A DNA stretch of 64,000 bases, taken from assembly GCA_024137785.1 (NCBI GenBank), contig JAHRHZ010000263.1:37136843-37200842 (forward strand), written 5' to 3'. Source of the DNA: Ginglymostoma cirratum (taxonomy: Eukaryota). Shown here piece after piece: positions 1 to 62,428 of the stretch (positions are counted from its first letter, which is position 1; every line of letters starts with the position of its first letter). Position numbers and translations under genes: made by a program. The notes beneath the pieces are model-generated. The model saw nothing but the letters and a program-made list of their open reading frames with translations, was not told the DNA's origin and searched no databases.

Positions 1-30
1 TGACGTTTCGGGCCTAGACCCTTCTTCAGA
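1..30 (-). ncRNA. Minimal hammerhead ribozyme core at the head of a Penelope-like unit, truncated by the window edge
   Basis: The reverse complement reads UCUGAAGA-A-GGGU-CUAG-GCCC-GAAA-CG-UCA: CUGANGA core, stem II, GAAA and a GUC triplet. The 3' strand of stem I lies outside the window. Confidence 0.6.
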
Positions 31-49
31 AAAATAAGTGTGAGATTCT

Positions 50-355
50 CAGAGGCTGTCATTTAGATGAGACATTAAACTGAGGCTCTGTCTGCCCGTT
101 CAGTTGAATATGTAATAAAAAATCTGACAGCTAAATTGAAATAAGAGCAAGGAATTCTTCTAGTATCCTGGCCAAATTTCAGCTTTCAACCAACACCAAA
201 AACCAGAGTGATAATTCACCTCATTTACTGAGCGAAGGCTCTTATTGTGAACAAATTACCTGCTGCACATTCGAAGGGAATGAATTAGAACGATGTTTTT
301 TGCAACATCCTAATGTATGATGTGATATGATGCTGTATTAGGTACATGTTCATTC
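50..355 (+). mobile_element. Decayed Deu-domain SINE (SacSINE1/AmnSINE1-like)
   Basis: gatgagacattaaactgaggctctgtctgccc...aagagcaaggaattcttctagtatcctggccaaattt...tcaaccaacacc resembles the recalled Deu domain. Confidence 0.65.
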
Positions 356-467
356 TGAATTTCATGTCAGCTTAAATGATATGAACCTTTACTTGTTGGA
401 TTAACACAGATAAAGTGCAAAAGTAACATGGAAGATAGTGAAGAGAATGCTTATCAAAAACAAAAGG

Positions 468-860
468 TCGTACATTTACATAGTGCCTTTTGTGATCGCA
501 GGATGTCACAGGGTACTTTACTTTGAAAGGAAGTCACTGTTCTAATGTAGAATTGTAATTGCTAATTTGCACAAAACAAGCTCCTGCAAACCTCACTGTA
601 ATACAACCAGATAATTTGTTGTAGTGACTTTGAGGGATAAATATTGACCAGGGCTTTTACAAAAACTCCTCTTGCTCTTCTTCAAAATTGTACTGCAGAA
701 TCATTTCTGTTCTCACTAGAAGGTAGAAGAGGTCATGTTCTAATATCTCATCCATTGCACAGGCAGTGGAACATTCCCTCTGTATTTCACCAGAGTATCA
801 TTTCGAAATATATGTCAGATCTTAGAGTGGAAGCTGAGCCTGTAACTCTCTGACAAAGGG
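468..860 (-). mobile_element. Decayed Deu-domain SINE, opposite orientation
   Basis: catttacatagtgcctttt tail; ttgagggataaatattgaccagg and ctcctcttgctcttcttcaaaat are reverse-complement Deu-domain motifs. Confidence 0.65.
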
Positions 861-2162: not shown

Positions 2163-3999
2163 GTACTGCTGCTGCATGTACTGTTTCTGGCAAAGGTAGG
2201 TCTGACCCTAACTCATACCCAGAAAGTAGATCCCATTATTTAGCTACTTTTCCCCATGAGGGGTGCAGCAGGTGGGATATTTCTCAGTTCTGCCTAGCTA
2301 CCTTGGAATTCTAATGATCCACTACACACAAGCTGTTGAGTTATACTTCTACAGTATTATTTGTTTCTGGAATGTGCTGTTATTTTTACTTTGTATATAC
2401 TTATGTATCACCGCATGCAAAATAGAATTCTTCCTTATGGTCTAGATCATATTTACTTAATTTCTAGTGTGTACAAATTCTGATATAATTTTTACAGTTA
2501 CGGTTTTATAGTATGAACAATTTCCTGTCATAAGTACTCACTTATGTCATAACTACATAATAATGCTTCCTCCTCTGAAAATGGTATGTACAACATTAGA
2601 CCTCAGACGGAAGCTCTAATTAGGAGCTCATTTGTTTACTACCTACATAGATAAAAGGTTGTTGTATTTGCAGAATAGGTACTTAGGAAAAGGAAAAGAA
2701 TTTAAATAGACTCAATATAATCAGTTGCCATAGACAGCTATAAGGCTGCATCTACAGAAGATAATTAAATATTCTGCACGCTTAATGAAAGGAAAATTAG
2801 CCTTTTTTTTCTCCTTTAACAGTCTGAATAATTGCAACTTCCCGAAAGAATTATTGTGCAAAGCCCGAAAGGGGAGCAGTATACTGCGTGAGTAGGAATT
2901 AATAGTTGATTAATGAAGAAATCTGCCAGGACCCTTTGAATATGGTTTTCATTCAGTCTTCAATCTTGTGTACTTATTCATATTGTCATTCAATACAATA
3001 TTGATTCTCAATATTGCAGGGAAAGCTTTCTCCATTTGTAGAGCTCTGGCAAAAAGATAATTAAATACGACCAGCTATGTAACTTTTACAAAGGGCCAAA
3101 TGGCCTGTGTATAATAATCATTCAGTGATCTTGTAGATCTTTCACTTTGGCAGAGAGGACAAGAGTGGCAGAGCACATTTCCATGGGTACATGCTGAAAC
3201 GGTCGTTCATCTTGCATTAGCCTGGGCAATAAGCACTTGGTAGAAATCGCAGCTAAGTCTGTTCCTGCACCAAATGTCCACACTTACAAATGTTTTGGCA
3301 GAAGCTCACCAGTTAGTTATCACGAAAGGGAGCCTTGGCTGATCATCCCCCTCTATAGTCAGACGCTAAAGCCATTGGAATATTCACAGGACCAGTCTTG
3401 CAGATTAAGTAAATGAGCATAGATGAGAGGTCAAAACTAATGTTTAATAGATTTAAATTGTTTACCAACTACCATAATGACCTCCAATATACCATTCCTG
3501 ATCGGGTAAGGAGTAAAAATGAAAATCTGGGTATAAGTTGCATTTATCAGGACATTGGCAGGAATTTGCTTGCACTTTCAAAGTCTGCAATTGAGGATAG
3601 AAAACAGTCTAGTTATCCAACTTGATGAATTAGTAGGTCATTGATTTAAATGCAGTGATTCATTGCATAATACACATGATTTTGACTGAACCATCACGGA
3701 GACCAATTCATACAGTCAGAGGAGAATTATTATGGCACGGAAGGAGGACATTTAACTTATCAAGTCTAAGCTGGCTTCCTGTAGAACTATCCAGTCAGTC
3801 TCATCCACCTGTTGCAGCTCCAGCTATTTCCCTACCATTCCCATTTCCTTCTGAAATCATTGATCATCGACATTGGCAGCCTTCTCATACAAAGTGAATT
3901 CCAGCTCATTACCATTTCATAATATGAATGTGAATCACTTTTTGGGACGGATTGATGGCAAAGTTAAACAATTTATAAATAAATTACTGTAGAACCCAG

Positions 4000-4085
4000 C
4001 AAAAACAGTAATTCCTGGAGAAACTCAGCAGGTCCGGTAGCACCTGTGGAGAGAAAACAGAGTTAATGTTACAGGTCCAATGAAT
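4000..4085 (-). mobile_element. Penelope-like short unit (partial)
   Basis: aaaaacagtaattcctggagaaactcagcaggtccggtagcacctgtggagagaaaacagagttaatgtt matches the other copies in the window. Confidence 0.6.
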
Positions 4086-4982
4086 GATTGTAACTTCTAA
4101 TTCTTTCTTAAACAATTCCTGCTTTTTTTTTTGTCTCCGCTGCCCTGTCTAGAACTTTGTTCCGCATGTTGATCCTGTTTCCATGAAGTGTTAAGAACAA
4201 TGTATAACTTCAAGTTTAATTTCTATTTTGCATTTTGCATGTTAGGAAGGGGACACTCATTTTTTAAGATTTAGTTTCCTGGGCTTGATGTTTAAAGTCT
4301 GGAGTCTTTTTTTGTATACATGCATTTTAGTAAGGTTTTACAACCCTAGAAGTGAGGAGCTGGATAGTAGTTAGTGCATTAAAAGAAGGTAAGAGAAAAT
4401 TGTGTTGTTGCCTGTTGGCAGGGATGCAGGACATACAGAAACAGGAAAATCTAAAAGTCAGTCGGTACATGTTTTGGCAAGGATCTAAGTATTAACTCTC
4501 CAGTGAAAAATTCGACAGAACAGTTGGAAGCTGAGTTTAGAGAACTTGTGTTCACTCTGTAGTTAAAATAACAGTGAGTTTAATTTGCAGTTTGGTTTAG
4601 GTTCTTTTTTCAGGTGTCTCAGGCAGAGAAACCAGCTGAAGAAAGAGTACCGAAGGAGCTATGGAGTGGAGATGGGATGAGTATTCACTGGGGCTTTGGT
4701 TTTTGGAAGGTCTGTTTGTACTAAACGACTGCTTTCAGTGCAAGGGCTGCTCTAATATGTTGGAACTCTGGGAACTTTCCTATTGACATCATAAGACTCT
4801 GAAACATTGAAACAGGAATAGGCCGCAGGACCCTGAACCCGTTCCAACATTTATTAAGATTATGGATGACCTTCTATGATAATGGGGTATTCGAGATGGG
4901 ATTGTCAATAACAGAATTTGAACCTATGCCCCCAGATTATTAGCATTGGGATTACTGGTCCAGCCACATTACCTCCTGCTCC

Positions 4983-5068
4983 TATGATGCTGCTGGGCTT
5001 GCTGTGTTCATCCAGCTCCACACCTTGTTATCTCGGATTCTCCAGCATCTGCAGTACCTGTTACCTCT
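4983..5068 (+). mobile_element. Penelope-like short unit, 3' part only
   Basis: gatgctgctgggcttgctgtgttcatccagctccacacc...ccagcatctgcagt belongs to the same subfamily as 45777-45981. Confidence 0.6.
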
Positions 5069-5472: not shown

Positions 5473-5790
5473 GGGCAGCACAGTGGCTCAGTGGTTAGCA
5501 CTGCTGCCTCACAGCACCAGGGACCCGGGTTCGATTCCACCCTTGGGCAACTGTTTGCGTGGAGTTTGCACATTCTCCCCATGTCTGCATGGGTTTGCTC
5601 CGGTTTCCTCCCACAGTCCAAAGATGTGCAGGCTAGGTGGTTTGGCCATGCTAAATTGCCCACAGTGTTTAGGGATGTGTAGATTAGGTGGGTTATAGGG
5701 GGATGGGTCTGGATGGGATGCCCTGAGGTTCAGTGTGGACTTGTTGGGCCAAAGGACCTGTTTCCACACTGTAGTGATTCTAAAAAAAAA
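5473..5790 (+). mobile_element. HE1-type V-SINE, copy 1
   Basis: tRNA head with A box tggctcagtgg and B box ggttcgattcc; V domain ggagtttgcacattctcccc...ccacagtccaaagatgtgcag; HER1-like tail; ends in an A run. Confidence 0.9.
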
Positions 5791-5796
5791 ATTTTA

Positions 5797-6112
5797 GGGC
5801 AGAAAGGTGGCTCACTGGTTAGCACTGCAGCCTCACAGCGCCAGGGACCCGGGTTCGATTCCACCCTCGGGCGACTGTCTGTGTGGAGTTTGCACATTCT
5901 CCCCGTGACTGCGTGGGTTTCCTCCAGGTGCTCCAGTTTCCTCCTACAGCCCAAAGATGTGCAGGCCAGGTGGATTGGCCATGCTAAATTGCCCACAGTG
6001 TTCCGGGTGTGTGGGTTATAGGGGGATGGGTCTGGGTAGGATGGTCCAAGGGTCGGTGTGGACTTGTTGGGCTGAAGGGCCTGTTTCCACACTGAAGGGA
6101 CTCTGTGATTCC
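5797..6112 (+). mobile_element. HE1-type V-SINE, copy 2, tandem with copy 1
   Basis: Same head, V domain and tail (gggctgaagggcctgtttccacactg...ctctgtgattc). Confidence 0.9.
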
Positions 6113-6649
6113 GTGAGGTGCTGTGCTGTGGATGTCAACTTTACACAAGTGCTATCAATGATGTAGATGAGGGGAGTGAAAGCATGGTAGCTAAATTTAT
6201 ACAAGATTTCAAGATAAATAGGAGACTATGTGGTGAAGAAGACATAAGGAAGTTGCAACAAACAGGAAGAACACCTAAGGAGGTTGCAGGTAGATGTAGG
6301 CTGAGTGAGTAGGCAAAAATCCGCCAGATGGAGTGTAATTGAGAAAATATGAAGTTGTTCACTTTGGCAGGAAGAATTTAAAAAACCGCTATTTTCTCAA
6401 ATGGAGATAACCTGTACAATTCAGAGGTGCAGAAAGATTTAGGTGTTGTGGCACATGAGTCACGAAATATTAGTTTGCAGCTCCAGCACATAATCAAGAA
6501 GGCTAAGAAGATGCTATCTTTAATATGAGAGGAATTGAACACAAAAGGAAAATGTTATGCTTCAGTCGTACAGGACATTGGTGAGATCATATCTTAAATA
6601 TTATGTGCCATTTTGGTCTGCTTGTTTAAAGAAGGATGTAAATGCCATT

Positions 6650-6890: not shown

Positions 6891-6959
6891 TATTAAGAAC
6901 ATAACTCACCCTACCCTCTCTCAAATAAAACCAAGAAAGTAAGTTGTGAAAGGATACAA

Positions 6960-7315: not shown

Positions 7316-8398
7316 AGCACCACACCTCCCTGTGACCTTGAGTTGAAAAGGACGTGGTGAATGATGGCCAGAAGAGAGGGTCAGCAACAAGGGCAGGTGG
7401 AGGTTTCCAACAGGTAACCCCCTCCCCATTGCTGGGTCCCTCAATTGGAAACTGAGTGCCTTTGAAAGAAGAAATCTCTTCCCCAGGAGCCTGTAATCAA
7501 ACATGTCCCAGGATTTCCTTGTCAAACTCCCTACAAGGCAACCATCTCTAACTGTCAATGCAGGCAGCAGTGGGATGAGTCCCTTAAGAGGTCATAACAT
7601 CCTCATTTAAGTGCCTCAATTGGTAATGGGCCAGGTTAGCTTACCACTGGCTTTCCCACCATGCACTTAGTTGAGGTGGAGAAACCTGTCAGCTGATTAA
7701 TTTCTCCAGTGTTATCAAATGTGCCATCAAGTGGCGGGGAGAAGATTCAGGATTGTGCAGGGTCCAGTCTAAGTAATGGCAGATTCTGTCAGATTGGGTC
7801 TTTTAGCAAATTAAGGCCCACGTTGTCAAGCATACATTTCCTGTAAGTGTTCCAACTTGCTTGCCACTCAAATGTTCTAATGGATAAGTATGCCCAATGA
7901 CTTGCCGTGACAAATGTCCAAGATGGTTTATTTGTTACAAATAAATAAATAGTACAGCTGTTAGAGACATTCGGCCAATGATGTCTTTTTCAGTAAAAAT
8001 ACATCCAGCTTTGTTTCCAGTGGATGATATGACCTGGAGCTTTTGATTGGATTACTACCCAGTAACTCACAGCTGGTCAGTATTGTTACGAAGGAGTGTT
8101 AGCAGTTAAAGATATTTTTTCTTATGTCCTGTCTTTCTCGAGTTTCTGGGTCAGTCATTTTTAAGCCTCAGTGGGCCACACATGGTGTGAACTTTGGGCT
8201 CAGGATTCAATCTTTCATCTTAACTCTGATCCTCCCACTCCTTCTGCTCTGGATAGGGGTATAGACAGCCAAGACAGCTGGCTACTGAAACTTTAACCAC
8301 ATGGATAGCAGAAGAATTCCCTGAATCCCGAGCCAAAAAAGAAATAATGTGGATTGCAAACACATTGTTCACTGTTGGCAGTTCTGTTCCTTGGAACA

Positions 8399-8533
8399 GT
8401 TCTGAAGAAGAGTCATACTAGAATTGGAAAGTTAATTCTGCTTCTCTTTCCGCAGTTGCCGTCAGACCTGCTGAGTTTCTCCAGCATTTTCTGTTTGTTC
8501 CAGATTTCCAGCATCCACAGTATTTTGCCTTTA
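8399..8533 (+). mobile_element. Hammerhead-headed Penelope-like short unit (degenerate)
   Basis: Starts gttCTGAAGAagagtc and continues agacctgctgagtttctccagcattttctg...ttccagcatccacagtattttgc. Confidence 0.65.
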
Positions 8534-9450
8534 TAATGGACCATATATTCCCTAAGTTGAACCAGTGATCTCGTACTCCCAGCACAGGTGTGCAAAGTGG
8601 AAGCAAGCGTTTGTGAACTTGAACTTATCAAAAACTGCTCTGCCCATATACCATGTTGCACTCATCATGCCAGAAGATGCTTCAGTTTCCCAGTTACAAA
8701 TGTCTTGATTTCAAATTTCTCATCCATGGTCACTCCGTGGTTCAAGGAGGCAGCTCATCACCACCTTATCAAGGGCAACTAGAGACAGGGAATAATTGCT
8801 GGTCCAGCCAGTGATGCCCACATTACACAATCGAATCAAAACCGAGTAACTAAAAAGCTTTTCCAATCTCCTGCAACCCTCCAGCTTCATGAGATCTTGA
8901 TATAACTCCAACTGCAGAAGCTTGCACATCCCCGAATTGAATCGGTCTGTCAATGGTGGACATACCTTCAATACATTTCCAAGTTTTCTGAAAGTTGGTG
9001 GATGAGAACGTGTTTCAGTATTATTGGATGAAAGTGCTTAAGGGCCTTACCTGGATTCCCAGTCTGCACTCGGTTAGCTCATCATGGAGAGAGCAGAGTT
9101 GGGATATGACAATTGGCTCATATTCCAAGAGATGGGAATCTTGTTGTTTTCTTGCCACAACTTTGGCTAACTTTTGACAGTGTGCTTGTGCCATGAAACT
9201 TAAAAACAGCATGACGTGGAATAGGCAGCTGGATTTCAAGTGAGGTTTGGAATTGGATGCATGTTCCACTGTTAATAAACAGTGCCACAATATTGATGCT
9301 GTTGAAAACTGTCTGACATCAGCCATTTTAAGAAAAATGGAAAAGAAAAGGAATATGTTTCTGTGCAATTTCAGTGCATAATGATAGCTGATTTGCTGGT
9401 TACCCTTACTACCATTGATGAATAGTTGGTGTGATATTTGTCTTTGACAG

Positions 9451-13508: not shown

Positions 13509-15599
13509 CATTTTTATAATGAACAATCCATGTAGCTATCTGTTAGTTCAGAACTTGATGATTTTCTTTGAAGTTTTTCATCGTGCACTCAGGACAATCA
13601 AGAGAAGAATACAAATGATTGTCGGTCAAGCTGACAGTGTGGCGCACTTGTTCATGTGCAAGTTACACATGTTAATATACAGGGCTCCGTTCTTTGCAGA
13701 CAGGAGGACCTTGTACATGCACTGCACCTATTTCAACTCGACAAATAGGTCATAACTTTGGTTCATTTTTCAGGCCAATGCCATGACCAATCAGTCAGCC
13801 ATCCTGGTTTAAAATTTACGAAGCTTGGCTGTAGGCTGTCAGTCACCATCTAACTGTTGCAATGTGCATAGCAATTTTTCTACCAATCAGAGTCCACTTG
13901 TCAAACAGTCAGCACTTTCCTCTCATACAGTATAAATGTTCTTTTCTCCTTACAATTGTATTTCTTGCAAATTGTCCTGATAAATTCAAGCCAAAGAGTT
14001 TCAATAAAATGTGTCTTTTTTGCAGCAGTACTGAAAAATGCCAATGTAAAATCTCAATCCAGCAGTGGTTGTACTCCAGTGTGATTGGTTCACACTGGCA
14101 GTTTAATTGCAAATGTCATTAAGAGATCAGGAGATAAAAGGGAGAGGAAAGTAGTGGTAAGATTGAAAATAGGTATTATATTTGTGAAAACTTTGTCCTT
14201 TTTCCACCAAGTGGTTTCATATTACTGCAAACTGGGAAGAGCTGCACAGATTTGGCTCAATTGAGGGCTTGGTTGAACATTATGATGAACATTCTTCTGC
14301 TTTCAGCAATAAAATTCAGTTAGCATAGTTATTTCTGAAGGTTAGAATGCCTGTGGAAGTTTTGCAGTCTAGTAATTGCAAATCGGCATTGCTGAAATGA
14401 AGCAGCCTCTGCCTTAAGAGTGAATTAATTTATCTACTGCAAGACCATCTGTGCAGTTACGGGTGAAAATGTATCTGTCAAGGCAACAGGTCTGCATCAA
14501 TTCCTTTAGAATGCTATCTCCAGTTTTGAGATTGCTGTTGGTACCAACACCACAATTTGAAACAGGCAGAAGCTGCACAGCAGCAAACTCAATTTGAAAC
14601 ACTTTCATTCTTTTGCTTGAGGACTAGGATATCAAGATTTGCTAATTGAATCCACATCTGGATCTGTGGCATTTAATGTTCATTAGATTTTTATACTTTG
14701 GGTCTTTCCTGCAATGTTCTTCCATGTTTGACTACCCTATGGTTTATTGGGAAGGGAACTACTGCTGCAGCATTAGCTCTGCCAGGCCTTTTTATCAACC
14801 ATATCTTGAAGACCATATTTATCTGTTCTGCTATTGCTGTGTTCCGGACAAACAACACACAAATTGACTGCCATGCTTCCTACTTTACAGCATTTTCAAG
14901 CACTTAATTGGCTGTAAATTGCTTTAGGACATCCTTAGGCTAGTTTGTTCTTTCCTTCATCTGGAAGAATGCTGGATAGAAGCTGTGTTCCCATCTGACA
15001 GCCTGCACACATCTGCATTTTCTAACAGGTGAACAAACCTCACTTTTACATATGGCTCAACTATGTAGGTGGCCCTCTTGCCAATAGAAGCTGGAATGGC
15101 AGATGTGGTGCCCCTCCTGGAGTAAATGTTACACAACAGCTAGTATCTTAGAGCATCAGTGCATAGTACGAGAATAAGGTAAGTTCTGAGCCAGTGCCCA
15201 GGACCCCTTACACTGCTGATATCTTAATCTCAGACCTATCACCTTGGTAAAATGATTAGCAGGTACACGTCATTTCTCTACAGGGAGGAGGAAATAATCA
15301 AGGGCAGGTCTAATTACTGAGCTGCCCTGATGACCTGCTCAATAGAGCAATGGCAGTAACTCACCTGTCTGCTATCCCGGTAGTATATGGGATTGGGAAC
15401 AGAAAATGGCAGGAAAAATGTGGGTTCATGCCTAGTGGTAAGAATTCAATTAGCTCATTAAATACAACTGTCTTGTCCTAGATAAATTTATGAAAGGAAA
15501 TGAAATATCTGTGGTATGTGTCTGCAATTGGGTAAACCTGGTGTGTTATTGCCAACAGCTATGTTCAATCCAGAAGACACACTTTGGCTTCCAAAGTGA

Positions 15600-15690
15600 A
15601 AAACTCTGGATTCTGGAAATAAAATCAGAAACTGTTGGAAATACTCTGCAAATGGATGGTATTTGCAGAGAGAGAAATACAGTTAACGAC
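15600..15690 (-). mobile_element. Penelope-like short unit (old, partial)
   Basis: tctggaaataaaatcagaaactgttggaaatactc...gagagaaatacagttaacg. Confidence 0.5.
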
Positions 15691-17021: not shown

Positions 17022-17127
17022 TCTGCACATGTAGCTGGAACAGGTACAATGGGCTGATCAGCCTCCATCCGTCCTGTCTCATCCTATGACTCTGATTTTA
17101 GAAGAAGAGCAGAAACAAGTATGACTA

Positions 17128-17420
17128 ACAAAATCAGAAATTGCTGGAAAAGCTCAGGAGATTTGACAGCATTTGTGGAGAGAAAGCAGAGTTAACATTT
17201 CAGGTCCAGTGACCCTTTTTCAGTCCTCCAGCAATTTCTGATTTTTGTTTCTGATTTCCAGCTTAGGCAGTTTTAAAGTTTTTTTTAAAATCGAGTTCTG
17301 AAGAATGGTGGCTGAACACAAAACATTAACTCTGTTTTCTCGCTACAGATGCTGCTTCTGCATTGCTGAGCTTTCCAGCAATTTCTAGTTTTGTTTCTGA
17401 TTTACAGCATGCACCATTTG
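17128..17420. mobile_element. Compound inverted and tandem Penelope-like units with degenerate hammerheads
   Basis: A minus copy (17128-17223), a plus 3' half (about 17227-17285) and a plus full copy starting gagttCTGAAGA at 17293. Confidence 0.7.
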
Positions 17421-17840
17421 GATTTTTTCTTTAAATCAGATATAAGTACTTTCATTAATACCTTATGACTTTTTTTCTCCATATGAGATTGTGCAGTGTC
17501 ACTAAGGACTGACAGATATTTGCTATAGTACAGGTATAAAGCTCCTGTACTTTGTGGTTAGCAAGTGTGAGGAATTGCTCTGTCATCACTAGAATTCAGC
17601 TGGCTTCATCTTGTGGCAGTAGTATTTGGCAACATCCAAACATTCCCACAATATCAAAGTTAAACTGAAGAGGAGATGCTGCAGTTGGAAACATTGTAAC
17701 TGTTCCTGGAGCAAGATCCATCATTATTTAATAACAGCTGGACCAGAGACCATGACAAAATGAGAGAAAAAATAATGTATGCAGGTATATCTCCTCAGCT
17801 CAGTTTTGGCTGATGCAAAAGGCAAATCAAAGTCAACTTT

Positions 17841-18169: not shown

Positions 18170-18339
18170 AATCCATATTTTCATAAAATTCTGGTGCAAT
18201 TGCATTGCTAATGATGGGAAGTAGCATAGATCAAAAGATTGGACTTCAACAGGCATCGATCATGGGGAATTTACCATCTTCAGAAATAAGCCTGTGGCTT
18301 CTATTGGCAGAGGCAATTAATTACAAGATCAGTTGCTTT

Positions 18340-25791: not shown

Positions 25792-25890
25792 CAAAAATAG
25801 AAATTGCTGGTAAAACTCAGCAGGTCTGGCAGCATCTGCGGGGAGAAATCAGAGTTAATGTTTCAGGTTGAGTGATCCTTCCTCAAGAAC
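25792..25890 (-). mobile_element. Hammerhead-headed Penelope-like short unit
   Basis: ...cagagttaatgtttcaggttgagtgatccttcctcaagaac ends at the degenerate CUGAGGA core. Confidence 0.65.
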
Positions 25891-27214: not shown

Positions 27215-27955
27215 ACTATAAGGCTTAGGAACAGAAAAGGCTATTTGGCCCATTGAGTCTCCTCCACCATTCAATGAGATCATAGCTAATCTGATCATCC
27301 TCAACAATAAAAGCAGAAAATGCTGGAAGAAGTCAGTAAGTCTGGCAGCATCTGTGGAGAGAGAAACAGAGTTCAGAGTTAAATTTTCGAGTCCATTTTG
27401 ATGGTTCGTTGGGCTCCCTCAAATCCACTTACCTGCCTTTCCCCAAATCCCTTAATTCCCTTACTGATTAAAAATATGTCTATCTCAGCCTTGAATGTAC
27501 GTAACAGCCCAAACTCTATAGCCCTCTCCAGTAAAGAATTCTACATGTTAACTGCCATCTGAGAAAAGAAATTCATCCTCATCTCTTTCTTAAATGGGTG
27601 ATGCTCTGAAATTATGCCCTCTGATTTTAGACTGCTCCACAAGGGGAAGCGCATCTACCTTGTCAAATCCCCTCAGAAGCTTACATGTTTTAATAAGGAC
27701 ACCTCTCATTCTTCTGAAATCCAATGAGTATAAGCCCAAACTACTCAACATCTCCTCATGGGAAATTCCCTCTATACACAAGATTAACCTTCTCTGAACT
27801 GCCTCCAGTGTCATGTAAATCTTTCCTTAGATAACGGGAACAAATTTGTTCATAGTGCTATGTATACTTTTAGCAAGACTTCCCCATTTTTATATGCCAT
27901 TCCCTTTGAAATAAAAGCCGGCATCCAGTTTGCCTTTCCTTTTACCCACTGAACT
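27215..27955 (-). mobile_element. CR1 3' fragment interrupted by a Penelope-like unit (about 27305-27415)
   Basis: Minus ORF LGLYSLDFRRMRGVLI; cctcaa is repeated on both sides of the insert. Confidence 0.78.
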
Positions 27956-38882: not shown

Positions 38883-39318
38883 GACAAAAACAGAAGTTAC
38901 TGGAAAAGCTCAGCAGGTCTGGCAGCATCAGTGAAGAAAACGCAAGAGTTTTTTTTTATTCATTCACGGGATGAGGGTGTCGCTGGCCAGGCCGCATTTA
39001 TTGCCCATCCCTAATTGCCCAGAGGGCAGTTAATTGTCAACCACATTGCTGTGGGTCTGGAGTCACATGTCGGCCAGACCAGGTAAGGATGGCACTTTCC
39101 TTCCCTAAAGGGCATGAGTAAACCAGATAGATTTTTCCAACAATCGACAATGGATTCATGATCATCATTAGTCTCTTAATTCCAGGTATTTTATTGAATT
39201 CAAATTCCATCATCTGCCGTGTCAGGATTCAAACCCAGGTCCCCAGAACATTATCTGGGTCTCTGGATTCACAGTCTAGCGATAATACATTCCGGGTTCG
39301 GTGACCCTTCCTCAGAAT
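38883..39318 (-). mobile_element. Hammerhead-headed Penelope-like unit with a 10-bp TSD, itself split by a SINE
   Basis: TSD gttccacagg at 38873-38882 and 39319-39328. The unit halves are 38883-38950 and about 39288-39318. Confidence 0.8.
38950..39288 (-). mobile_element. tRNA-derived SINE family 2 whose tail is shared with CR1-group family B
   Basis: T run and attcattc tail, catttattgcccatccctaattgccc, a conserved core and the reverse B box ggattcaaaccc. Confidence 0.8.
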
Positions 39319-42030: not shown

Positions 42031-43343
42031 GCTACGATGGGGCTGCTATGGGACTAACTCAGTCATTGTGTGTCAGTAGGTGGTGGGGCTGACTCAGTCT
42101 GAGGCTATAACTATCTGCCCCATTTGGAGCAGAGTTCGTAATGCCTCTGGCCAGTGACAGTACTTAAAAAAGAGGACAAGAAGGGGCAGGTTGGAAATGC
42201 ATGGAGTTGACTGAGTAATGGAGTTGGTTGGAGGCAGGATTGATTTGGGAATAAGGTGATTCTGACTTCACCATTGTACATTTACGACATTACAAGCTAC
42301 AACTGGCTGGGTATTCATGGCTGTTGCAGGAATCTGGTGGTAGGTTCACTCCTGGGTAGCAAACACACCCCAGTGCCAACCATCTACTGATTTGCACTTA
42401 TGAGCATGTGTAAGCCTGAAATACAGAAGGGATGGATCAGCTAGGCAATGTATGGTCCAGAGGTGGGTGACAGGATGGAGGAGATAACATATTTGGGAAG
42501 GTGCTGTGAGTTGGCCAGACCTGGCAATCATTGCTGTGGCTGCTGTCTTTGAATGATCTTTATAAAGGAAAGATTCCGCAAATCTCAAATTGGCCAGGGC
42601 ATCTGTAGAGCTGGAAGCCAGGGCAAGGTAGAAAAGTGTTAGGATTATTAAAATTCATTTGCTGGGCAATGGATTCCCATCATTCCTAGCCCTGCCTCCC
42701 ACCCAATAAGCAAAACAAGATGGAGCATAAAGACTGACTGGGACAGAATTCCCCTTCTCCTGGTGTGGTGGAATTTCTCCGTGTCCTTCGAGAGAGATAT
42801 ATCTTCCTGGTCCTGAGGACAGTGCCTTGAAGGTAGCACTGAGAGGAGATTTTGGAATGAGGTGAGCTGGTCAGTGACACAACCTTGTTGAAAGCACGTT
42901 GCCATGGGTAATGGCTATCCTCCCTTCAGTAGCGGGTAATTAATTTGAGTAATGAAGTGCCCTGTTTTAGGCTGATCAGAAATTGACTGACTCCATGCTA
43001 ATTTTAAAGCCTGCACGTAGCTGGTCTGAGGTGGAGGGAAGGACGAGATCCATGAGACCTCATTTCCTGACTACAAGCCTGCTCCCTGTCCCACCAGAGC
43101 AGCATGGATCTGTGGTGTGCAACTACATCTGTCCAACCCATCCAGGAAAACCCTTCATTGACTGCCTTTGGCAAGATGGGCATCCTGGCAACAAATGCAG
43201 AAATGGATTCAATAGTGATTATTTGTGAGAAGTGTAAGATTCCATCCACCTTGTGATTTGTGAATTGTTAATGTGTTGTTACAAGGCATTGTGAGGAAAC
43301 TGATACTCCTCATACTCGAAGAACAAGGTTAAGAGAGTGTGTA

Positions 43344-43557
43344 AAAACCGAAAGGACTGCGGATGCTGTAAATCAGGAACGAGAACAGAAGTTGCTGGAA
43401 AAGCTCAGCAGATCTGGCAGTATCTGTGAAGAGAAATCAGAGTTAATGTTTCACATCCAGTGACCCTTCAGAGGACCCAAAACATTAAGTCTGATTTTTT
43501 TCTTCACAGATGCTGCCAGACCTGCTGAGCTTTTCCAGCAACTTCTGTTTTTGTTCT
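43344..43557. mobile_element. Palindromic Penelope-like element with inverted arms of about 80 bp
   Basis: The arms at about 43375-43452 and 43478-43557 are near-perfect reverse complements, and the centre is made of truncated hammerhead cores. Confidence 0.8.
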
Positions 43558-45776: not shown

Positions 45777-45981
45777 TTATTCAGTACAGTGCGGAACTGG
45801 AGGAGCACAGCAGGTCAGGCAGCATCAGAGGAGCAGGAGAGTCAACGTTTCGGGTTGGGAGCCTTCATCCTGACCTGAAACATTGACTTTCCTGCTCCTC
45901 TGATGCTGCCTGACCTGCTGTGTTCATCCAGCTCCACACTGTACTGACTCTGACTCCGGCATCTGCAGTTCTTGCTATCTG
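45777..45981. mobile_element. Palindromic Penelope-like element with an 11-bp TSD
   Basis: TSD ttcagtgtgct at 45766-45776 and 45982-45992; inverted arms at about 45782-45855 and 45872-45948. Confidence 0.85.
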
Positions 45982-46790: not shown

Positions 46791-46853
46791 AAAGATCATA
46801 TGTAGATTATTTTAGCGATTGATTTGTGTATGAAGACAGAATGAAGACAAAAT

Positions 46854-46945
46854 TTCTGAAGAACGTTCCTGACCCGAAACATCAGCTTTCCTGTTCCTCT
46901 GATGCTGCCTGGCCTACTGTGTTCATCCAGCTCCACACTGTGTTA
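46854..46945 (+). mobile_element. Hammerhead-headed Penelope-like short unit
   Basis: ttCTGAAGAacgttcctgacccGAAAcatcagc followed by ctctgatgctgcctggcctactgtgttcatccagctccacac. Confidence 0.7.
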
Positions 46946-47039
46946 ATTAGGAAATCTAGTTTTGGTCTTACGTGTTTATTTTTCATCAAACTACTTTTTA
47001 ATGTAACCCTGCTTTAATACTAGAAAGTTAACATACCCT

Positions 47040-47445
47040 CAGAAATTCATCAAAGATTCATAGACAGCACCTTCCAAATCTACATAAAAACCAGAAGAAC
47101 TGCAGATGCTGGAAATAAGAGACAAAATCGGAAATTGTTTCCAAACCCACGACCTCTTCCATCACGAAGGGCAAGAACAGCAGATACATCGGAAAACCAC
47201 CACCTGATAATTTCCCTCCAAACTAATCACCATACTGAGTTAGAAATAGCCTGCTGTTCCTTCACCGTCACTGGGTCAAAATCGTGGATTTCTCTCCCTA
47301 ATGACATTGTGGTTCAACCCACAGCACGTAGACTGCAGCAGTTCAAGAAGGCAGCTCACCACCACCTTCTAAGACACAACTAGGGGCAGGCAATAAATGC
47401 TGACCCAGCCAGCAACTCCCACCTGCCATGAATGTATAAAAAAAT
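47040..47445 (+). mobile_element. CR1-group family B 3' end with a small Penelope-like insert (about 47085-47137)
   Basis: SFTVTGSKSWISLP..QQFKKAAHHHLL, then ggcaataaatgctg and an A tail. Confidence 0.75.
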
Positions 47446-48820: not shown

Positions 48821-49223
48821 GGTAAAGTCACCATAGACTTACTGGGCCACGGGGCTGCTCTCTCATAATAGAGAGAGGTGACTCATTGTGGTTTAACCTG
48901 ACGGTCATCATGCCACAGGTGAAGGGAGAGGTTGAGAAGGAGAGTCTGTTTCGTGGTAACCTCAGCTTGTGGGGCATTTAGGCCATGTGGTTGGCATCAG
49001 TCTGCATAGCAATGCTGCATCACAAGCAACCCCTTTGTAAAGCAGAGTGATGCCAACAGCGTGGGTTCAATTCCTGCTCTGTCTGAGGTTACCATGAGGG
49101 ACTGTCCTTCTCAAATTCTCCCCTCACCTGACCGCATGGTGACCCACAGGTTAAACCACCTCAAATCATCTCTCTCTAATGAGTGAGCCGTCCCATAGTC
49201 CTCAAATTTACCTTTACCTTTAT
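48821..49223. mobile_element. Head-to-head pair of tRNA-derived SINEs (tails outward) inside one 13-bp TSD
   Basis: The left half is the reverse complement of the right half (ggttcaattcc B box, gaggttaccatg, caggttaaaccac, (TTTACC)n tail). It is flanked by ttaagacttg(t/c)aa. Confidence 0.75.
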
Positions 49224-50219
49224 TTAAGACTTGCAAAACTTAACACAATGCAGTGTATGAAAAATAGTTTACAGAACTAAACAGAAAGTATGTCACAGTT
49301 TCTTTTCAAGACAGAAGTGTGTGTCTTGATGAAATGTCTTAGGTCTGTTCTTTGAATCCTGGGATGTTATCCATCACCCCTCCCCTCAGGACTTCTGGAC
49401 TGTAACAGCCTGAATATTAATTTTTTTAAAAAAATTAGAAATCACAACTATACACCGCCTAATCCAATCAAAATGTAACGTACTTACTTCCTTTGTTCCT
49501 GATCATGTTCTGTCCTGCCAGCATTGTAGCTGAGGTTGGTTCTAGATTAAGAACAGGAGTCAGTTTGCTCTCTGCACAATGGCTGATAACTATGACAGTT
49601 TGTTAGTTATAAGTGATATTGTTAAGCTTTTGAGCAAATTAACAGTTTTACAGAATGCACAGTGAAACATAAGCTCATAAACGTGCAAGGATTTGAAACA
49701 AAGTGCATCTATGTGAGGAGAGTCTTGGCCTTTAAAAGCATGGCTTTAAAATGAGTGATTTCACAGAAACTGAAGAAGCACAACAGTCTAGTGTCTACTG
49801 AAACCTGATCTCTAATTGTCAGACTGAAGCCGTTGATGTCTCCAATGTGAAATTAGTTCCAGCAAGGAGTAAAGCCCCTTGTTTAATATCTAAGACTAGT
49901 TTGGAAATAGTCCAAAAGAATGTGGTGACAGCATTGAACAGCCTTTCTGCCTTTTTCGATTCACTGCAACAATCCCATTGTTTGGTAGTTGAGTTTCTTT
50001 CCATCTCTGTTGTCCACTCTATATTTCCTATGATAAATGATGTAATATGCAAAAGACCTTTAATAAATTCGTGATATTTAAGAATTTCTGTCAGGCATAT
50101 GGTGTTCCCCTAACTCAACCAGGGTGAGGGAATCAGCAATGTGATCCTTTTCAAATTAAACCATTTTGTTACTTGACTCTACCCACAGTTTGCTTTCTTT
50201 CACAAAAAATAACAACAAA

Positions 50220-50340
50220 ATACTGTTAATTTGATACTGTAGATTTGAAATAAACAGAAATTGCTAGCAAAACTCAGCTCTGGCAGCACCTGCAGACAGT
50301 GAAACAGAGATAATGTTTCAGATCCAGTTCAAGATTCTTC
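50220..50340 (-). mobile_element. Penelope-like short unit (decayed)
   Basis: aacagaaattgctagcaaaactcagctctggcagcacctgcagacagtgaaacagagataatgtttcag. Confidence 0.6.
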
Positions 50341-51790: not shown

Positions 51791-51794
51791 GAAA

Positions 51795-52257: not shown

Positions 52258-52914
52258 AGTGTAGTAAAGGTGATAGAGCTGTGTCCTAGTGTAGAAACAA
52301 AATTACAACCTCTGAAAATCTGAAATAGACGTAGAAAATGCTGGAAATACACATTACGTCCGTCAGCTCTCCGAGTGAATACATAGGTTCACATTACAGG
52401 TATATTTTTGTCCCCCCGAACCGTTTTGTTAAAAGTTCAGCAACCATTCATTTTCAATGTTGATGGTCTGGCATTTGTTGTCAGTATTTTCTGCCTTTTT
52501 GATAAAAGTTTTGCAGCAGCCCAGCTACACACCAAGTGAAAAGGAAAATACCACACAACTTGTAGCGATGAGTGCACACTAGAAAACAGGGGCAGCTCGG
52601 CATCACACAAACCGATAATTATCTGTGTGGCTAAGGTGTTTCAGTCCAGCTGCAGAGACTTTCCTGCATGCCAGACAGTCCAAGGTTAACCCCTTGTCTC
52701 CAGGATTAATCATAGAGGCAGTAAAAGGATATTGTGGTTTAATTTTCTCTGAATAGTGGAGGGTAAGTGCTGTTTCACGGTCAGTAGGAGACAGGAAGTC
52801 ATATTGAAACCTCTAAGAACATGTCCAGGCCAGAGCTGAAAACCCAAATCGCCAGTGTGTGGCAGAGAAGTATGTTGTGATGATCCTTTTTAACTTTCAA
52901 AGAAAGGGGAAAAG

Positions 52915-53462: not shown

Positions 53463-53803
53463 GTGTGGCACAGTGGCTCAGTGGTCAGCCCTGCTGCCTT
53501 ACAGTGCCAGGGACCTGGGTTCAGTTCTAGCCTTGGGTGACTGTCTGTGTGGAGTTTGCACATTCTCCCCGTGGGTTTCCTCCGGGTGCTCCGGTTTTCT
53601 CCCACAGTCCAAAGATGTACAAGCTAGGTTGATTGGCCGTGCTAAATTGCCCAACAGTGTGCAGGCTGAGTGGGTTATCCATGGGAAATGTAGGGTTACA
53701 GGGAGTAGGATAGGGGTTGTATCTGGGAAGGATGCTCTTCAGAGGGTTGGTGTGAACTCAATGAGCCAAATAGCCTGCTTCTACACTTGTATGGATTCTA
53801 TGT
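53463..53803 (+). mobile_element. HE1-type V-SINE
   Basis: gtggcacagtggctcagtgg head, V domain and gattctatg tail. Confidence 0.88.
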
Positions 53804-53864: not shown

Positions 53865-54029
53865 ACTGAAAATGCTGGAAAACCTCAGCAGGAGTTCTGA
53901 GGAAGGGTCACTCAAGCTGAAACGTTAACTCTGATTTCTCTCCACAGATGCTGCCAGACCTGCTAAGCTTTTGCAGAAATTTCTGCTTTTGTTTCTGATT
54001 TACAGCATCCGTCATTCTTTCGGTTTTTA
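53865..54029 (+). mobile_element. Hammerhead-headed Penelope-like unit with a short inverted arm and a perfect 14-bp TSD
   Basis: TSD ttcatcaaacatta at 53851-53864 and 54030-54043. Confidence 0.85.
53892..53931 (+). ncRNA. Minimal type I hammerhead ribozyme motif (stem II partly mutated)
   Basis: GAGUU-CUGAGGA-agggucacucaagcu-GAAA-CG-UU-AACUC has a 5-bp stem I, intact core boxes and a palindromic AACGUU in place of stem III. Confidence 0.6.
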
Positions 54030-57591: not shown

Positions 57592-58630
57592 GAGTCATAG
57601 AGTCATACAGCATGGAAACAGACCCTTCAGTCCAACCAGTCCATGCTGACCATAATCCCAAAGTTAACTAGTCCCACCTGCCTGCGCTTAGCCCTTATCC
57701 TTTGAAATATTTCTTACTCATGTACTTATTCAAATGACTTTTAAACGTTGTAGCTGTACCCACATCCACCACTTCCTCTGGAAGTTCATTCCACACATGA
57801 ACCACTCTTTGTGTAAAAAAAAATTGTGCCTCATGTCTTTTTAAAATTTTTCTCCTCTCACCTTAAAAATATACCTCCAGTCTTGAAATCCCCCACCTTA
57901 GGGAAAGGACACCTGCCATTCACCTTATCTACACCCCTCATAATTTTATAAACCTGTACAAGGTCACCCCTTAACTTCGTACACTCCAGTGTAAAAAGTC
58001 CCAGCCTATCCAGCCTCTCCTTATAACTCAAGCCCTCCATTCCCAGCAACATCTTGGTAAATCTCTTTTGAACCCTCTCCAGCTTAATAATATCCTTCCT
58101 ATCACTGGGTGACCAGAACTGGACACAGGACTCCAGAAGAGGCCTCGCCAATGTCCTGCACAGCCTCAACATAACGTCCCAAATCCTATACTCGAAGGTC
58201 TGAGCAATGAAAGCAAGCATGCTAAACGGCTCCTTAACCACCCTATATCTATATGTGACACAAATTTCAAATAATTATTATACCTGAACCCTTAGGCCTG
58301 TCTGTTCTACAACATTACCCAAGGCCCTACTTTTAATTGTGTAAGTCCTGCCTTTGTTTGTTTTACCAAAATGCAATACCTCACATTTATCCAAATTAAA
58401 CTGCACCGCCACCCTTCAGCCCATTGGCCTAATTGATCAAGATCGCTTTGTAATCTTAAATAACCTTCTTCACAGTCCACTGTCCCACCAATTTTGGTGT
58501 CATCTGCAAACTTAGTAACAATGTCTTCTGTATTCTCATCTATGTCATTTATATAAATGACAAACAAAAATGGACCCAGCTCTGATTCCTGTGGAACACC
58601 ATTAATAACATGCTTCCAGTTTGAAAAACT
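57592..58630 (-). mobile_element. HER1-like CR1 LINE (RT C-terminal half and 3'UTR)
   Basis: GVPQESELGPFLFVIYINDID, KFADDTKIGG and LERVQKRFTKML; (ACTCTATG)n tail at 57592-57607. Confidence 0.9.
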
Positions 58631-60019
58631 AACCTCCTGAAATTTCCTCTTGAAATCTTTTACTGTCTCCCTCACTGTTGACCACACTGGATTGATACTA
58701 CATACTATAAATGTACTTGCCATTTCAAGAAAACGCAATACATCCACATAGGCAGGAAACAAAGCACTCTTTCTCCATATTCAGATCTCCCGAGGGAAAG
58801 GTTATTTCTTTACTGTGATGCTGATTATATACAACACAATCGTCATATTTTCAATCAGTTCAAGGCAAACATGTATAAAAATGTAAAAGATCCACCTTTG
58901 TGTGGTGCCTTTGACTCCTCAAGATATTGCAAAGCTGTTCATAGCCAATTAATTGCTTCCTGTAATAAGATCTAAATGTTTTATAGACAAACACATTTGC
59001 CAATCTACAGGCAGTAAGTCAGACAAATTACAAGCAAGAAGCATGGTCAGTTAACTTCTTTAGTAGTGATATTTGGTTTTGGAATGAACATTGTTCAGGA
59101 CACCAAGAGGATTCCTTCTTCCTTTTTGGATTGACTGGATATCTGCAGTTGGTGTGTGAGTTTAGCTTCCAATGAGAAACAAACAATTTCAACTTTTACA
59201 CACGCCATTTGCTAGAAGTATAGCCATTACCATTTACAGTTTCATTTTAGATGGCCTTTGAACCTGCCCAAAACTGACAGGTACCAAACAAATGCCTGAA
59301 AATTAAGATCCTGCCCTTCTTTTATCCACCAGTGCTGACTTCTACAAATTATGGCCAAGAACAATTGAGAAGGTTATTACTAGAGGCTGGCAGCATTAAT
59401 AGATGCTTTTTGCTCAGCCTCCTCACAGCAACAGGGTGGTGCACTCGGAACAGAAACAGGCAGGAGGCTCCCAGCTCTCAGCTGCAGATCGTGTTAGTGG
59501 GATTTTTACATGGTCCTGTCCTTCTAATTCATGGGAAGAGGACCTCCACCCCAGGCACTTTCTGGAAATCTGGAAGGCTTTGTCAGAGTTATCATACAGG
59601 AGTGAGTTAATTCTGTTAGTTAAAATAAGATAGAATATGGCAAGGTGCAAGCTGGCTTGGAATAATTGTTTTCCAGTCTGTATGCACACCCTGTCTCAGG
59701 AATTACCACTTCACATTGTATTAAAACCTCGATAATGGTTTCTGTCTCTCATCCATATTCACTTCAGGCCCATTTTAGGTGCAGTTCATAAACCATGCCC
59801 AGCATCTCTGAAACACAGTGCTTAAACTTCCCCTTCAGTACCAAAACTGGGAGTGTAAATGAGTCCTAAGCAAGGCTTGAAACCACCACTTTTGAAATTT
59901 GAAATACAAGTATTATCACAGGGTCAGGTGGGCACATCAGGCTAGAATTTTTCCAACTAGATTACACTATCAGGATGGCAACCTCAACACAGGCCTCACT
60001 TTACCAGGATAAATAGAGG

Positions 60020-60910
60020 CTTGCATTTATATAGCACTTTCCACCTCCACTGGATGTCTGAAGGAGGAGACGCCTGTGCACAGAGGATTTACCAGGATGT
60101 TGCCTGGCCTGGAGAGTTTTGGTTTTGAAAAGAGATTGGACAGACTGGGATTATTTTCCTTGAAGCAGAGGAGACTGAGGGGGGACATAATTGAGATGTA
60201 TAAAATGTTGTGGGGCATTGACTGGGCAGACAGGAAGAAACTTGTGCCCTTGGTGGAGGGATCATTGACCAGGGGGCATAGATTTAAGGTAAAGGGTAGG
60301 AAGTTTAGAGGAGATGTGAGGAAAAAGTTTTTTAACTCAAGAGGTTGGCGAGAGTCTCAAACTCACTTCCTGGTAGACACAAAAAGCCTCACAACATTCA
60401 AGAAGCATTTAGATGTGCACTTGCGAAGCCAAGGCATATGGACCAAGTGATGGAAAATAGGTTTGTATAGGTAACTGGTTGTTTTGACTGGCACTGACTC
60501 AATGGGTCATTTTTTTCTGTGCTATAGATCTCTATGGCTCAAAGTGCAGAAACAGCCATTGATGTACTTCATGAAGTGTAATCACTGTTGTAATGTAGGA
60601 AATCCAGTCGTTAATTGGCATTCAACAAACTCTCATAAACAGTAATGTAATTCTTATCAGATAATCTACTTATCTTTAAGGGGTTAACTGAGGGATATAT
60701 TTTGGCCATGACACCAGGGATAACTTCATTGCTAGGGCATCTTGTATGTTCAGCCAAGCAGGCAGATGGTGTCCTGGTTGAACATCTCGTCTGGAAGATG
60801 GCATCTCTGACAGTGCGGCATTCCCTCAACACAGCAGAGGAGTGTCAGCCTTGATTCTTTAAACATGATTTTCAACACAGAATCTTGTGACTCAAGATTG
60901 AGTGTGCTAT
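60020..60910 (-). mobile_element. Deu-domain SINE split by a CR1 insertion
   Basis: Tail ttgcatttatatagcac...ggatgtct resumes at caaagtgc near 60540; it includes gagggatatattttggcc and aacatctcgtctggaagatggcatctctgacagtgcggcattccctc. Confidence 0.72.
60062..60539 (+). mobile_element. CR1 3' fragment nested in the Deu SINE
   Basis: FTRMLPGLE..RLDRLGLFSLKQRRLRGDIIEMYK. Confidence 0.82.
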
Positions 60911-62304
60911 GAAATCCTGTTGAGTTTGCTACAAAATGGACCACGGCTGACACAAGTTCAAAGTGGAGAATGGAAAACATAATTTATGGGAATATTTCTT
61001 TTGGTTGTCGAAATACTAATTATGATTAGAAAATGCTGAGAACATGCAACCAGCCCTTCAGAGTCTGACAAGAGAACAGCCAGGAAGGAGTCCAATTTGT
61101 TTTATATGTTTTAGATGCAGTGGGGCTTGTTTCTGTTTGCTGTGTGTTCTTGCTTTCCTTTACCAAGTCTGTGTGTAATGTGAAGCTGACTGTAGTTATC
61201 TTATTATTGAGGAGTGATGTTCACAATCAGCTCATGCTGCTTGGCTCAAGGAACTGCAAACTGCTGTTCCCTTAAGCTGCATTGGAAATCGCTTTTTAAT
61301 GTGGATTTATATTTTTTCACAGCTGCTTTAAACCAAATTCTAGGTTTCACAGTTGTCTCACACACTTTATAGCGTTTGTCAGAATTATTTTTTGTGCCGT
61401 TAACCATGATATAAACATTGTGATGTTTGGTGATTATGTTGTGCAATAGCCTGTTTGTGGTTTTAGAAGCAGGAGGCCACTCACTATCCACCCCATTGTG
61501 TTATGAATGCTTGATGAGGCTCAATTCCAGTTGTAAGCTACAGATATTTGAACTCTCAAGCATCTCGTCAGTGATGCCAGCTTGTGGCTTTTTTATGTTT
61601 TATTGGAGAATTACACATTTTTTTTGTTTTGGCAGGCCATGATGGAAAAACTGGACCTAGCAGTCCAAACCATAAATGGCTTCATGTCAGCACTGCAGCT
61701 AAAGATAGTCTAGTGTTACTGAGCCATTCAGAACCTGAACAAGTTCGGGAGAGTACACCCCCTTGGTTTGAAGTCCCCTGGCCCTGTACCCACGCTACTT
61801 TCCCATGAGGCCGCATTATGATGTGCCTAAGGCTTTTAGCTGTGCACTCTCAGTTGATATTGAATGGCACTTCTGTTCTGCTCTTTGCTCCTGTTTTCAG
61901 CTCACATGCTTTACCTATCACAGTGGTCCATCAACACCCTCTGTAAACGCATACTGAAAACTTGGGGTCGGACTTTCCCTTCCTCAATCAGGACAGGATA
62001 CAGGTGGGATTTGCAAAAGCACAGGCAGCCTGGAAGTCAACGCTAACTCTGCTGACAGAACTAGGACTTGGGGGTGGCCAATAGGGAGTCTTGAAGTCAG
62101 GAGAGAGCTTGTAAACTGACTTCCTGAGTTTTTTATGTAGGTTGCCAACCACCAAGCGATCTCTGAATCTGACCAGCTCCAACATGGTTTAAACAGCGTT
62201 AAAAAGGTTTGATAGAAAAACAGGGCATGGTGTGGGTGACAAAGAAAAGCTACTGAACAGCAATGAGATGTTCTGGATCCTGAGTGAAATACAAACACCA
62301 AACA

Positions 62305-62428
62305 ATTCTGAAGAAGAGTCATAGCGGACTCAAAAAATTCATTTATTTCTCTCTGCCAGGCCTGTTGGATTTCTCCATCTTTTTTGGTCTTTGTTTCAGG
62401 TTTCCAGCAACCGTAGTATTTTGCTTTT
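62305..62428 (+). mobile_element. Hammerhead-headed Penelope-like short unit
   Basis: CTGAAGA-A-GAGTC-ATAGCG-GACTC-AAAA: stem II is intact and GAAA appears lost by CpG decay. The family tail follows. Confidence 0.6.

Follow-up and report, generated by a model that had tools for sequence, protein, structure and literature searches.

The nurse shark genome raises, in a stretch of 64,000 nucleotides (Ginglymostoma cirratum, contig JAHRHZ010000263.1, positions 37,136,843 to 37,200,842; hereafter the window), the question of whether short repeats headed by a hammerhead ribozyme motif constitute a mobile family of their own or derive from larger Penelope-like elements (PLEs). An initial annotation of the window had counted about 15 related units, noticed no Penelope-like reverse transcriptase (RT) or GIY-YIG sequence beside them, and proposed an independent non-autonomous family, similar to retrozymes or to short interspersed elements (SINEs). 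All 16 sites that it listed were recovered as real, and no Penelope-like RT or GIY-YIG sequence was found in the window. The feature is real and non-random, it belongs to known elements, and it represents no new mobile family: judged by their sequences, the units are terminal repeats of two Penelope-like families of Neptune type, carrying RT and GIY-YIG domains, in this genome. What had been taken for one set of units comprises two homologous families, A, with a GUU cut triplet, and B, with GUC. Positions within the unit are numbered from +1, the A four bases ahead of the CUGA box; in some position counts, 0 denotes the base preceding +1.

The link to coding elements comes from the whole genome, 4.36 Gb in 289 contigs, in which a search for GIY-YIG sequences gave 22,577 candidate places; 150 were scored and the 15 top loci examined. 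In at least 14 of these 15, the hammerhead pattern of a B unit lies about 450-850 nt downstream, and the fifteenth shows the unit by eye. At locus L047, a 714-amino-acid frame contains RVT_1, below cut-off, and GIY-YIG, above cut-off; ahead of GIY-YIG, this locus and L046 carry a C-x4-C-x2-C linker that falls within the zinc-finger-like CX2-5CxxC definition. As read from the sequence, the linker and domain order of L047 fit the Neptune clade as described in PMC8557442. Atlas neighbours carry RVT_1 and GIY-YIG at 0.98. A second type of GIY-YIG end runs into an A unit in most of 20 listed loci, and 9 of 20 TATA-bearing loci of the A2 subfamily, to which the window copies 25890 and 53893 belong, match RT or GIY-YIG protein. 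The subfamilies A1, A2 and B are all linked to open reading frames (ORFs) elsewhere in the genome, each having copies that continue into 3' untranslated region (UTR) and GIY-YIG or RT sequence, contrary to the proposed independence.

In L204, L206 and L226, a B unit also stands ahead of the ORF, with a match that reaches the locus end (+2,734) and with tandem junctions; found both there and at the 3' end, the unit is therefore terminally redundant. The B unit of these three loci also contains the tandem ATG from which a short upstream ORF (+50 to +140) starts, the main ORF following at about +170. L046 and L047 are laid out as inverted end, truncated body, end and a target-site duplication (TSD) of 16-17 bp. 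Altogether, the marks of endonuclease-bearing (EN+) PLEs of the Neptune type were found: ORF contiguity, the linker, a pseudo-long terminal repeat (pLTR) at both ends, an inverted copy, a 30-40-bp tail and a TSD. Family B units sit inside family A elements at L023, L068 and L072, hence B was active after or alongside A. The start of the family A ORF was not located: 59 A tails share no sequence past the tail.

How copies begin was studied in 120 preset 10-kb regions at round coordinates, of whose 1.2 million bases 678,884 were readable; they yielded 203 arm matches, 187 of them usable and 168 with a 3' end beyond +90. Scaled up from these 679 kb, and provided that what could be read is typical of the genome, the 203 arms correspond to about 1.3 million arms genome-wide, in about 1.1 million insertions. 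The 5' breakpoints are non-random, as had been suspected: 34 of the 168 copies start above -60, 13 at -60 to -6, 61 at -5 to +7, 30 at +8 to +29, 15 at +30 to +38 and 15 at +39 to +70, and the peak at -5 to +7 stands out against the 56 starts at +8 to +60 with p=6e-15. A secondary pile at the cleavage site was considered and dropped, the interval with those 15 of 168 copies at +30 to +38 giving 1.7 starts per nt against 1.4 just upstream, which is not significant, though a minor class of such copies may exist. TSDs were called in 18 of 95 single copies versus 9 of 468 shuffled pairings, and 7 of those 18 end at -3 to +2. Young B copies (n=35) start at or above -82 in 20 cases, never between -81 and -2, and at -1 to +42 in 15, while 19 of 30 consecutive exact-match A loci start at -1 to +4 (one flagged as misaligned, one masked). 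In a base-resolution profile, thirty of whose loci were chosen on +2 to +25 and are hence blind to later starts, the match to the parent is about 0.95 at +3, 0.83 at +2 and 0.5-0.6 at +1, reaching background by -2. The edge, with starts piling at -1 to +3, thus lies about 33 nt upstream of the ribozyme cut (+33/+35).

The parents carry, outside the unit, TATAAA in family A and TATTTAT in family B, starting 29 and 31 nt above +1, respectively, and a further motif spans +1; by comparison with consensus motifs we take these to be TATA-like and initiator-like. Because of the TATA-like box 29-31 nt upstream, +1 is likely the start of an RNA polymerase II transcript driven by a putative promoter, which would place the uncleaved hammerhead at the head of the transcript. 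Genome-wide, the box is retained at parent spacing by 61 of 914 A2 heads, three of them apparently by chance, and by 29,026 of about 55,772 B heads (search patterns differing by three letters); 72 of 74 hammerhead-headed family A copies are without upstream sequence. The RNA-read evidence concerns family B only (run X21, 44,674 reads placed) and comes from fragmented runs with like depth on both strands; it comprises 2,409 loose ends at +2 that come from many loci and are flanked by mixed sequence, and 10 of the 15 listed joints lie at most 4 nt from +2. Among short copies starting at +2 the preceding base is T in 20 of 32, an excess that may stem from non-templated addition of A at run-off. 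Two other accounts of the edge were abandoned. A cap-derived G was first seen with a query that itself bore GG there and was absent from later copy sets. A 3' splice site would agree with the CAG and the branch-like motif of A, but 83% of the short A copies stopping there (stubs) keep +2 and 58% keep +1, and B is without AG.

At the opposite end, 3' ends cluster near +94-104 and +133-143, about 35 nt apart, resembling the tail set by two RT start sites in the Anolis element (PMC11167929). Copies occur as single units, head-to-head pairs or two-piece composites. Among 100 distinct head-to-head insertions, 67 could be classified, and 59 of these join a short with a long arm, against an expectation of 50% (p=4e-11). 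In 71 of the 100, the start of the further arm lies at -8 to +7. Most simply, such pairs would be two cDNAs, one per nick and per RT start site. Their seams are nearly all unique; near-identical ones occur in three of 100, yet with different junction letters. Re-amplified hairpins, for which two seam pairs sharing one locus were considered among the 100 insertions, were rejected, as were one-strand A-to-G scars, whose five candidates are confounded by subfamily differences.

The composites are evidence beyond the stubs themselves. Exact copies of the B ORF start occur 1,714 times in the genome; among the first 40 examined, 37 were unmasked, and 10 of these start at -2 to +3, 5 further upstream and 22 at +7 to +156. 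The ten were at one point taken for full-length elements beginning at +1, an assignment that their downstream sequence overturned: all ten consist of a 5' piece ending at +215 to +466 with a second unit directly behind. The second unit begins no more than 4 nt from +1 in eight composites and brings 75-150 nt of UTR with it in the other two, and a candidate TSD of 10-17 bp surrounds the whole composite in eight cases, the others being one masked and one without. L212 is an eleventh composite, with a 5' piece of about 1,480 nt, and RNA reads of family B likewise contain such joints, leading from +2 back to +409; in family A no such composite was found. On the simplest reading, the enzyme would run off, jump onto element RNA and run off once more. 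The composites show that the ORF start, too, was on the template, which further contradicts an independent short family. The 5' pieces (L377-L386, L212, L202 and the read joints) end in two clusters, +215-290 and +410-470, also when the partner carries UTR, and these may correspond to 3' ends of short transcripts or to entry points held by the protein.

The hammerhead was assigned by reading the motif off the sequence against the minimal form of PMC4209133. The parents present all its parts: CUGANGA, an extra base, stem II, GAAA, a palindromic helix III, NUH and a short stem I. The core reported by the initial annotation is a minimal, Penelope-like hammerhead, though by eye only the window copy at 1-32 keeps both core and stem II, and the model check that had been advised gave no hammerhead family in an Rfam scan of the window at E<=5, solely miRNA-like hairpins under their own thresholds. 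Of the reported covariation in stem II, GAGUC/GACUC is truly two-sided and marks an older subfamily, whereas GGGUC/GACCU is the CpG decay of GACCC. Stem I pairs differ between A and B, with 3-4 pairs retained in both; since the pairing of stems I and II is kept between subfamilies, it points to selection on the source elements. Genome-wide, exact matches to an intact hammerhead come to 55,772 for B and 4,766 for A, at least 60,500 together. Once inserted, the ribozyme core decays: the catalytic G12, within a CpG, has changed in 15 of 44 short A copies, at the rate of their CpG sites overall (37%), and in 3 of 19 short B copies; those with none of the 11 core positions altered number 8 of 45 and 10 of 19, respectively. 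A conserved RNA structure in the tail was considered and rejected, the consensus being weak, with two-sided changes in 0 of 6 pairs and single folds at z -1.5 to +0.4. The 40-nt head folds no better than shuffles (z -0.4 and -1.5). The minimum-energy folds predicted for two strands by co-folding are not the hammerhead dimer, and no family B read ends are listed at the cut site.

We consider it probable that the units, which as terminal repeats of two autonomous PLE families each consist of a hammerhead plus a downstream stretch of 100 or 135 nt, are dead run-off copies left by internal priming. The transcript would begin at +1, set by the TATA-like box, with an uncleaved hammerhead at its head; the RT would prime inside the element RNA, at the two start sites known from the Anolis element, which would account for the two 3' end points, and would fall off the RNA 5' end. 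Each DNA nick would use one start site, hence the head-to-head pairs. After run-off, either the stub would be integrated or the enzyme would jump elsewhere on element RNA. Being without a TATA box, stubs are predicted to be unable to re-amplify. The Anolis work documents internal RT initiation at two sites, cleavage and extension of both strands, and predominant use of uncleaved RNA as template (PMC11167929). A more ambitious version, possible but to be held tentatively, is a retrovirus-like "strong-stop and jump", with priming at the 5' repeat copy, run-off at the capped end and a jump to the RNA 3' end. Such a jump would build long copies and regenerate the pLTR; the approximately one million stubs would then be transfers that failed, and the composites would record jumps to element RNA that was truncated. 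Cleavage by the hammerhead of the 3' repeat could leave an overlap of 32-34 nt guiding a seamless jump. If true, it would answer how pLTRs and partial tandems arise.

The retrozyme- or SINE-like family first proposed, with units transcribed and copied in their own right by the Penelope protein, might explain why hammerhead-headed A copies are nearly all short and why no more than 61 of 914 A2 heads keep their TATA. Moreover, Penelope of Drosophila virilis has an internal promoter (PMC2377424), so that a unit beginning at +1 could be transcribed, and the three near-identical hairpin seams and the lower change of the non-CpG core would agree with such a family. We nevertheless regard it as very unlikely. 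The boundary lies off the cut site; a retrozyme would be bounded by it and arrayed with one hammerhead per unit, and no tandem array of the unit was found in the window, arrays genome-wide not having been sought. A SINE-like family should form a separate lineage, yet on a tree of low resolution 26 short B copies are intermingled with 31 long ones, with 17 label changes against 19.0 after shuffling and 104 of 500 shuffles as low, so that short B copies have no clade of their own. Every subfamily tested is ORF-linked, G12 decays, and the seams are otherwise unique. The stubs could alternatively be made in trans from promoter-bearing solo repeats (5'-truncated, TATA kept) rather than from the front of the element mRNA; such loci would be non-autonomous sources, their products still being dead. 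This would apply mainly to family A, with its more canonical TATA and initiator, its higher share of stubs and its 72 of 74 copies without upstream sequence; about 29,000 B copies also retain the upstream box, and host DNA flanked by pLTRs is reported to have been mobilised in trans (PMC3846280). It is unlikely all the same: the composites hold 215-1,480 nt of the element 5' region, absent from solo repeats, and the Anolis protein required ORF sequence downstream of the start sites (PMC11167929).

The edge also coincides with the 5' strand of stem I, and the B reads and the edge bases bear no signature of an RNA start or cap, which would suit the idea that copying of a longer template is stopped, or resolved, by RNA structure at the foot of stem I. 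From known RT behaviour, an enzyme travelling 3' to 5' should pause ahead of the stem, near +38, and not beyond it; stem I has just 3-4 bp in a head that folds no better than shuffles, about half of the B copies cross the point seamlessly, and the parents have a TATA-like box at the spacing of a start site. Hairpins self-primed on antisense RNA, as proposed in PMC3846280, would give no reason to expect that seams are unique and that the two arms end at different sites. To this pair of explanations we give the least credence of all.

Run-off from a capped element RNA, which we prefer, also has evidence weighing against it. The B reads reveal no RNA start at +1, nor any listed position where many molecules begin, and no excess of G from cap copying is seen, the base at -1 being G in 11% of A copies and 25% of B copies. 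TATTTAT is weak as a putative promoter box, 97% of family A is short compared with 52% of B, and the tree, confined to family B, has 96 columns and three well-supported branches. None of the elements seen is full-length with its start precisely at +1; the 11 candidates checked are all composites. In short copies the non-CpG core has changed less than downstream sites (A 8.9% versus 14.4%; B 5.3% versus 8.7%), which could mean constraint, counter to a purely neutral view, though subfamily differences inflate the downstream figure. Finally, 43% of the sampled bases were unreadable and the sample may be biased.

The window itself contains 22 arms found by profile search and one further piece (Table 1), most copies being decayed. 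The initial claim of at least eight copies with a 5' boundary at the CUGA box holds for eight, starting at +1 to +3, with 5' ends at 32 (+2), 8398 (+1), 17293 (+1), 25890 (+2), 39317/8 (+3/+2), 46852 (+1), 53893 (+1) and about 62303-62306; the remaining ones begin inside the unit, at +5 to +39 for single or longer arms. The three clean TSDs were confirmed (10, 11 and 14 bp), and a fourth, around the 4000 copy, is doubtful. The sites 38883 and 39318 are halves of a single copy; the insert of about 335 bp between them (38951-39286), A-rich at one end, arrived later and breaks the unit almost at the hammerhead cut (+33/+35), probably through chance use of an AT-rich target. At 17127-17434, a hairpin, about four bases and a complete unit from +1 form a three-arm compound, for which a TSD was sought and none found.

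Table 1. Hammerhead-headed units and their fragments in the window (unit coordinates relative to +1)
Positions	Strand	Family	Extent and state	Remarks
1..32	-	B	unit head, +2..+33; core and stem II of minimal hammerhead intact	cut by window edge
3998..4083	-	A	unit from +16	3' end of short type
4974..5068	+	B	+39..+133	tail present, without hammerhead
8398..8534	+	A, older	+1..+138	hammerhead decayed
15599..15688	-	A	+31..+127, decayed	E 8e-4
17127..17288	both	A	head-to-head: minus arm +5..+101, plus arm +81..+142	
17293..17434	+	A	+1..+142	directly behind 17127..17288 hairpin
25792..25890	-	A (A2)	+2..+99	
27301..27394	-	A	+21..+106	
38883..39318	-	A	one unit: head 39287-39318, rest 38883-38950	10-bp TSD 38873-38882/39319-39328
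43342..43556	both	A	head-to-head: minus arm +10..+137 (long end), plus arm +16..+102 (short end)	
45777..45981	both	B	head-to-head: minus arm from +7, plus arm +22..+131	11-bp TSD 45766-45776/45982-45992
46852..46952	+	B, older	+1..+102	
47084..47137	-	A	tail fragment	blastn only
50207..50328	-	A	+18..+140, decayed	
52292..52401	-	A	weak unit	E 0.002; absent from the initial annotation
53865..54029	both	A (A2)	head-to-head: short minus arm from +68, plus arm +1..+139 from 53893	14-bp TSD 53851-53864/54030-54043
62303..62432	+	A, older	about +1..+140; core decayed	stem II GAGUC/GACUC

Other repeats share the window. A 320-bp imperfect inverted-repeat element (48861-49181), unrelated to the units, has the look of a miniature inverted-repeat transposable element, its best Rfam match, MIR5638, lying far under threshold. 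A 33-bp tandem repeat of 6.5 copies (41807-42027) surrounds the only run of N in the window. Copies of another SINE-like repeat at 5473-6116, 17840-18186 and 53463-53653 presumably resemble the shark HE1 V-SINE. Fragments of RT ORFs from long interspersed elements lie at 34761-36245, 19919-20377 and 58307-58780, all on the minus strand, and we take them to be CR1/L2-like.

The replication cycle of PLEs is unsolved, and the roughly one million insertion products of this genome may be read as a record of its steps. These would be a template with a fixed 5' end, the use of a single RT start site on each DNA strand and jumping once run-off has occurred, and all three can be tested directly with the published in vitro system. 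The value is mechanistic, in that the fixed edge, the short-plus-long rule and the jump composites bring open steps within reach of experiment; for annotation, these short repeats belong under PLE by-products, not under a new SINE or retrozyme. Run-off and jump composites may also explain how PLEs build their end repeats. Earlier work leaves pLTR regeneration and tandem formation unexplained (PMC2377424) and the steps after initiation unvalidated (PMC11167929). Already known are solo and opposite-strand minimal hammerheads from truncated PLEs, inverted ends, one-sided tails and pLTR promoters (PMC4209133, PMC8557442, PMC2377424, PMC3846280). No published description of a fixed 5' run-off edge or of such composites was found, also among papers on shark genomes, in a search that left outside subscription journals, Dfam, Repbase and supplementary figures.

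Among known systems, animal non-LTR retrozymes (PMC7229834; bioRxiv 10.64898/2026.07.22.740005) are likewise short, non-coding, related to PLE pLTRs and provided with a type I hammerhead. They differ in forming tandem arrays with a hammerhead per unit and in giving cleaved monomers and circles, whereas the units described here are dispersed, start above the cut site and are tied to ORF-bearing parents. The minimal type I hammerheads of metazoan PLEs (PMC4209133) share the core boxes, the extra base between A9 and G10.1, the G10.1-C11.1 pair and the palindromic ACGU replacing helix III; their copies are also mostly single or on opposite strands, "probably related to truncated PLEs". Intact motifs amount to at least 60,500 here versus about 4,000 in the coelacanth and about 9,000 in Xenopus, and copies stopping at +1 do not suit, as a source of stubs, the circular template proposed there. 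In D. virilis Penelope (PMC2377424) the transcript also starts within the pLTR, but from a TATA-less internal promoter with an intron, while Pen2a of Adineta (PMC3846280) has its transcript start in the pLTR together with a putative TATA and initiator.

The closest parallels are Poseidon of Anolis carolinensis (PAc, PMC11167929) and the Neptune EN+ PLEs (PMC8557442). In PAc, too, two internal RT starts define the tail, both strands are cut and extended, the hammerhead lies at the junction of pLTR and ORF, and uncleaved RNA is the main template; its ORF starts inside stem II, compared with near +170 in family B. The excerpted text on PAc does not describe a 5' run-off point, a rule of one start per strand or jumps, and its supplementary figures may show a 5' pile-up. 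Neptune elements share RT followed by GIY-YIG with a CX2-5CxxC linker, a hammerhead in the pLTR, frequent 5' truncation, partial tandems, an adjacent inverted copy and a 30-40-bp tail at one end. Their 5' truncation is described, in the text cited, without a fixed stop, whereas in the nurse shark about a third of all copies, and most of family A, stop at one 4-nt edge, and the one-sided tail becomes quantified as the pairing of a short with a long arm.

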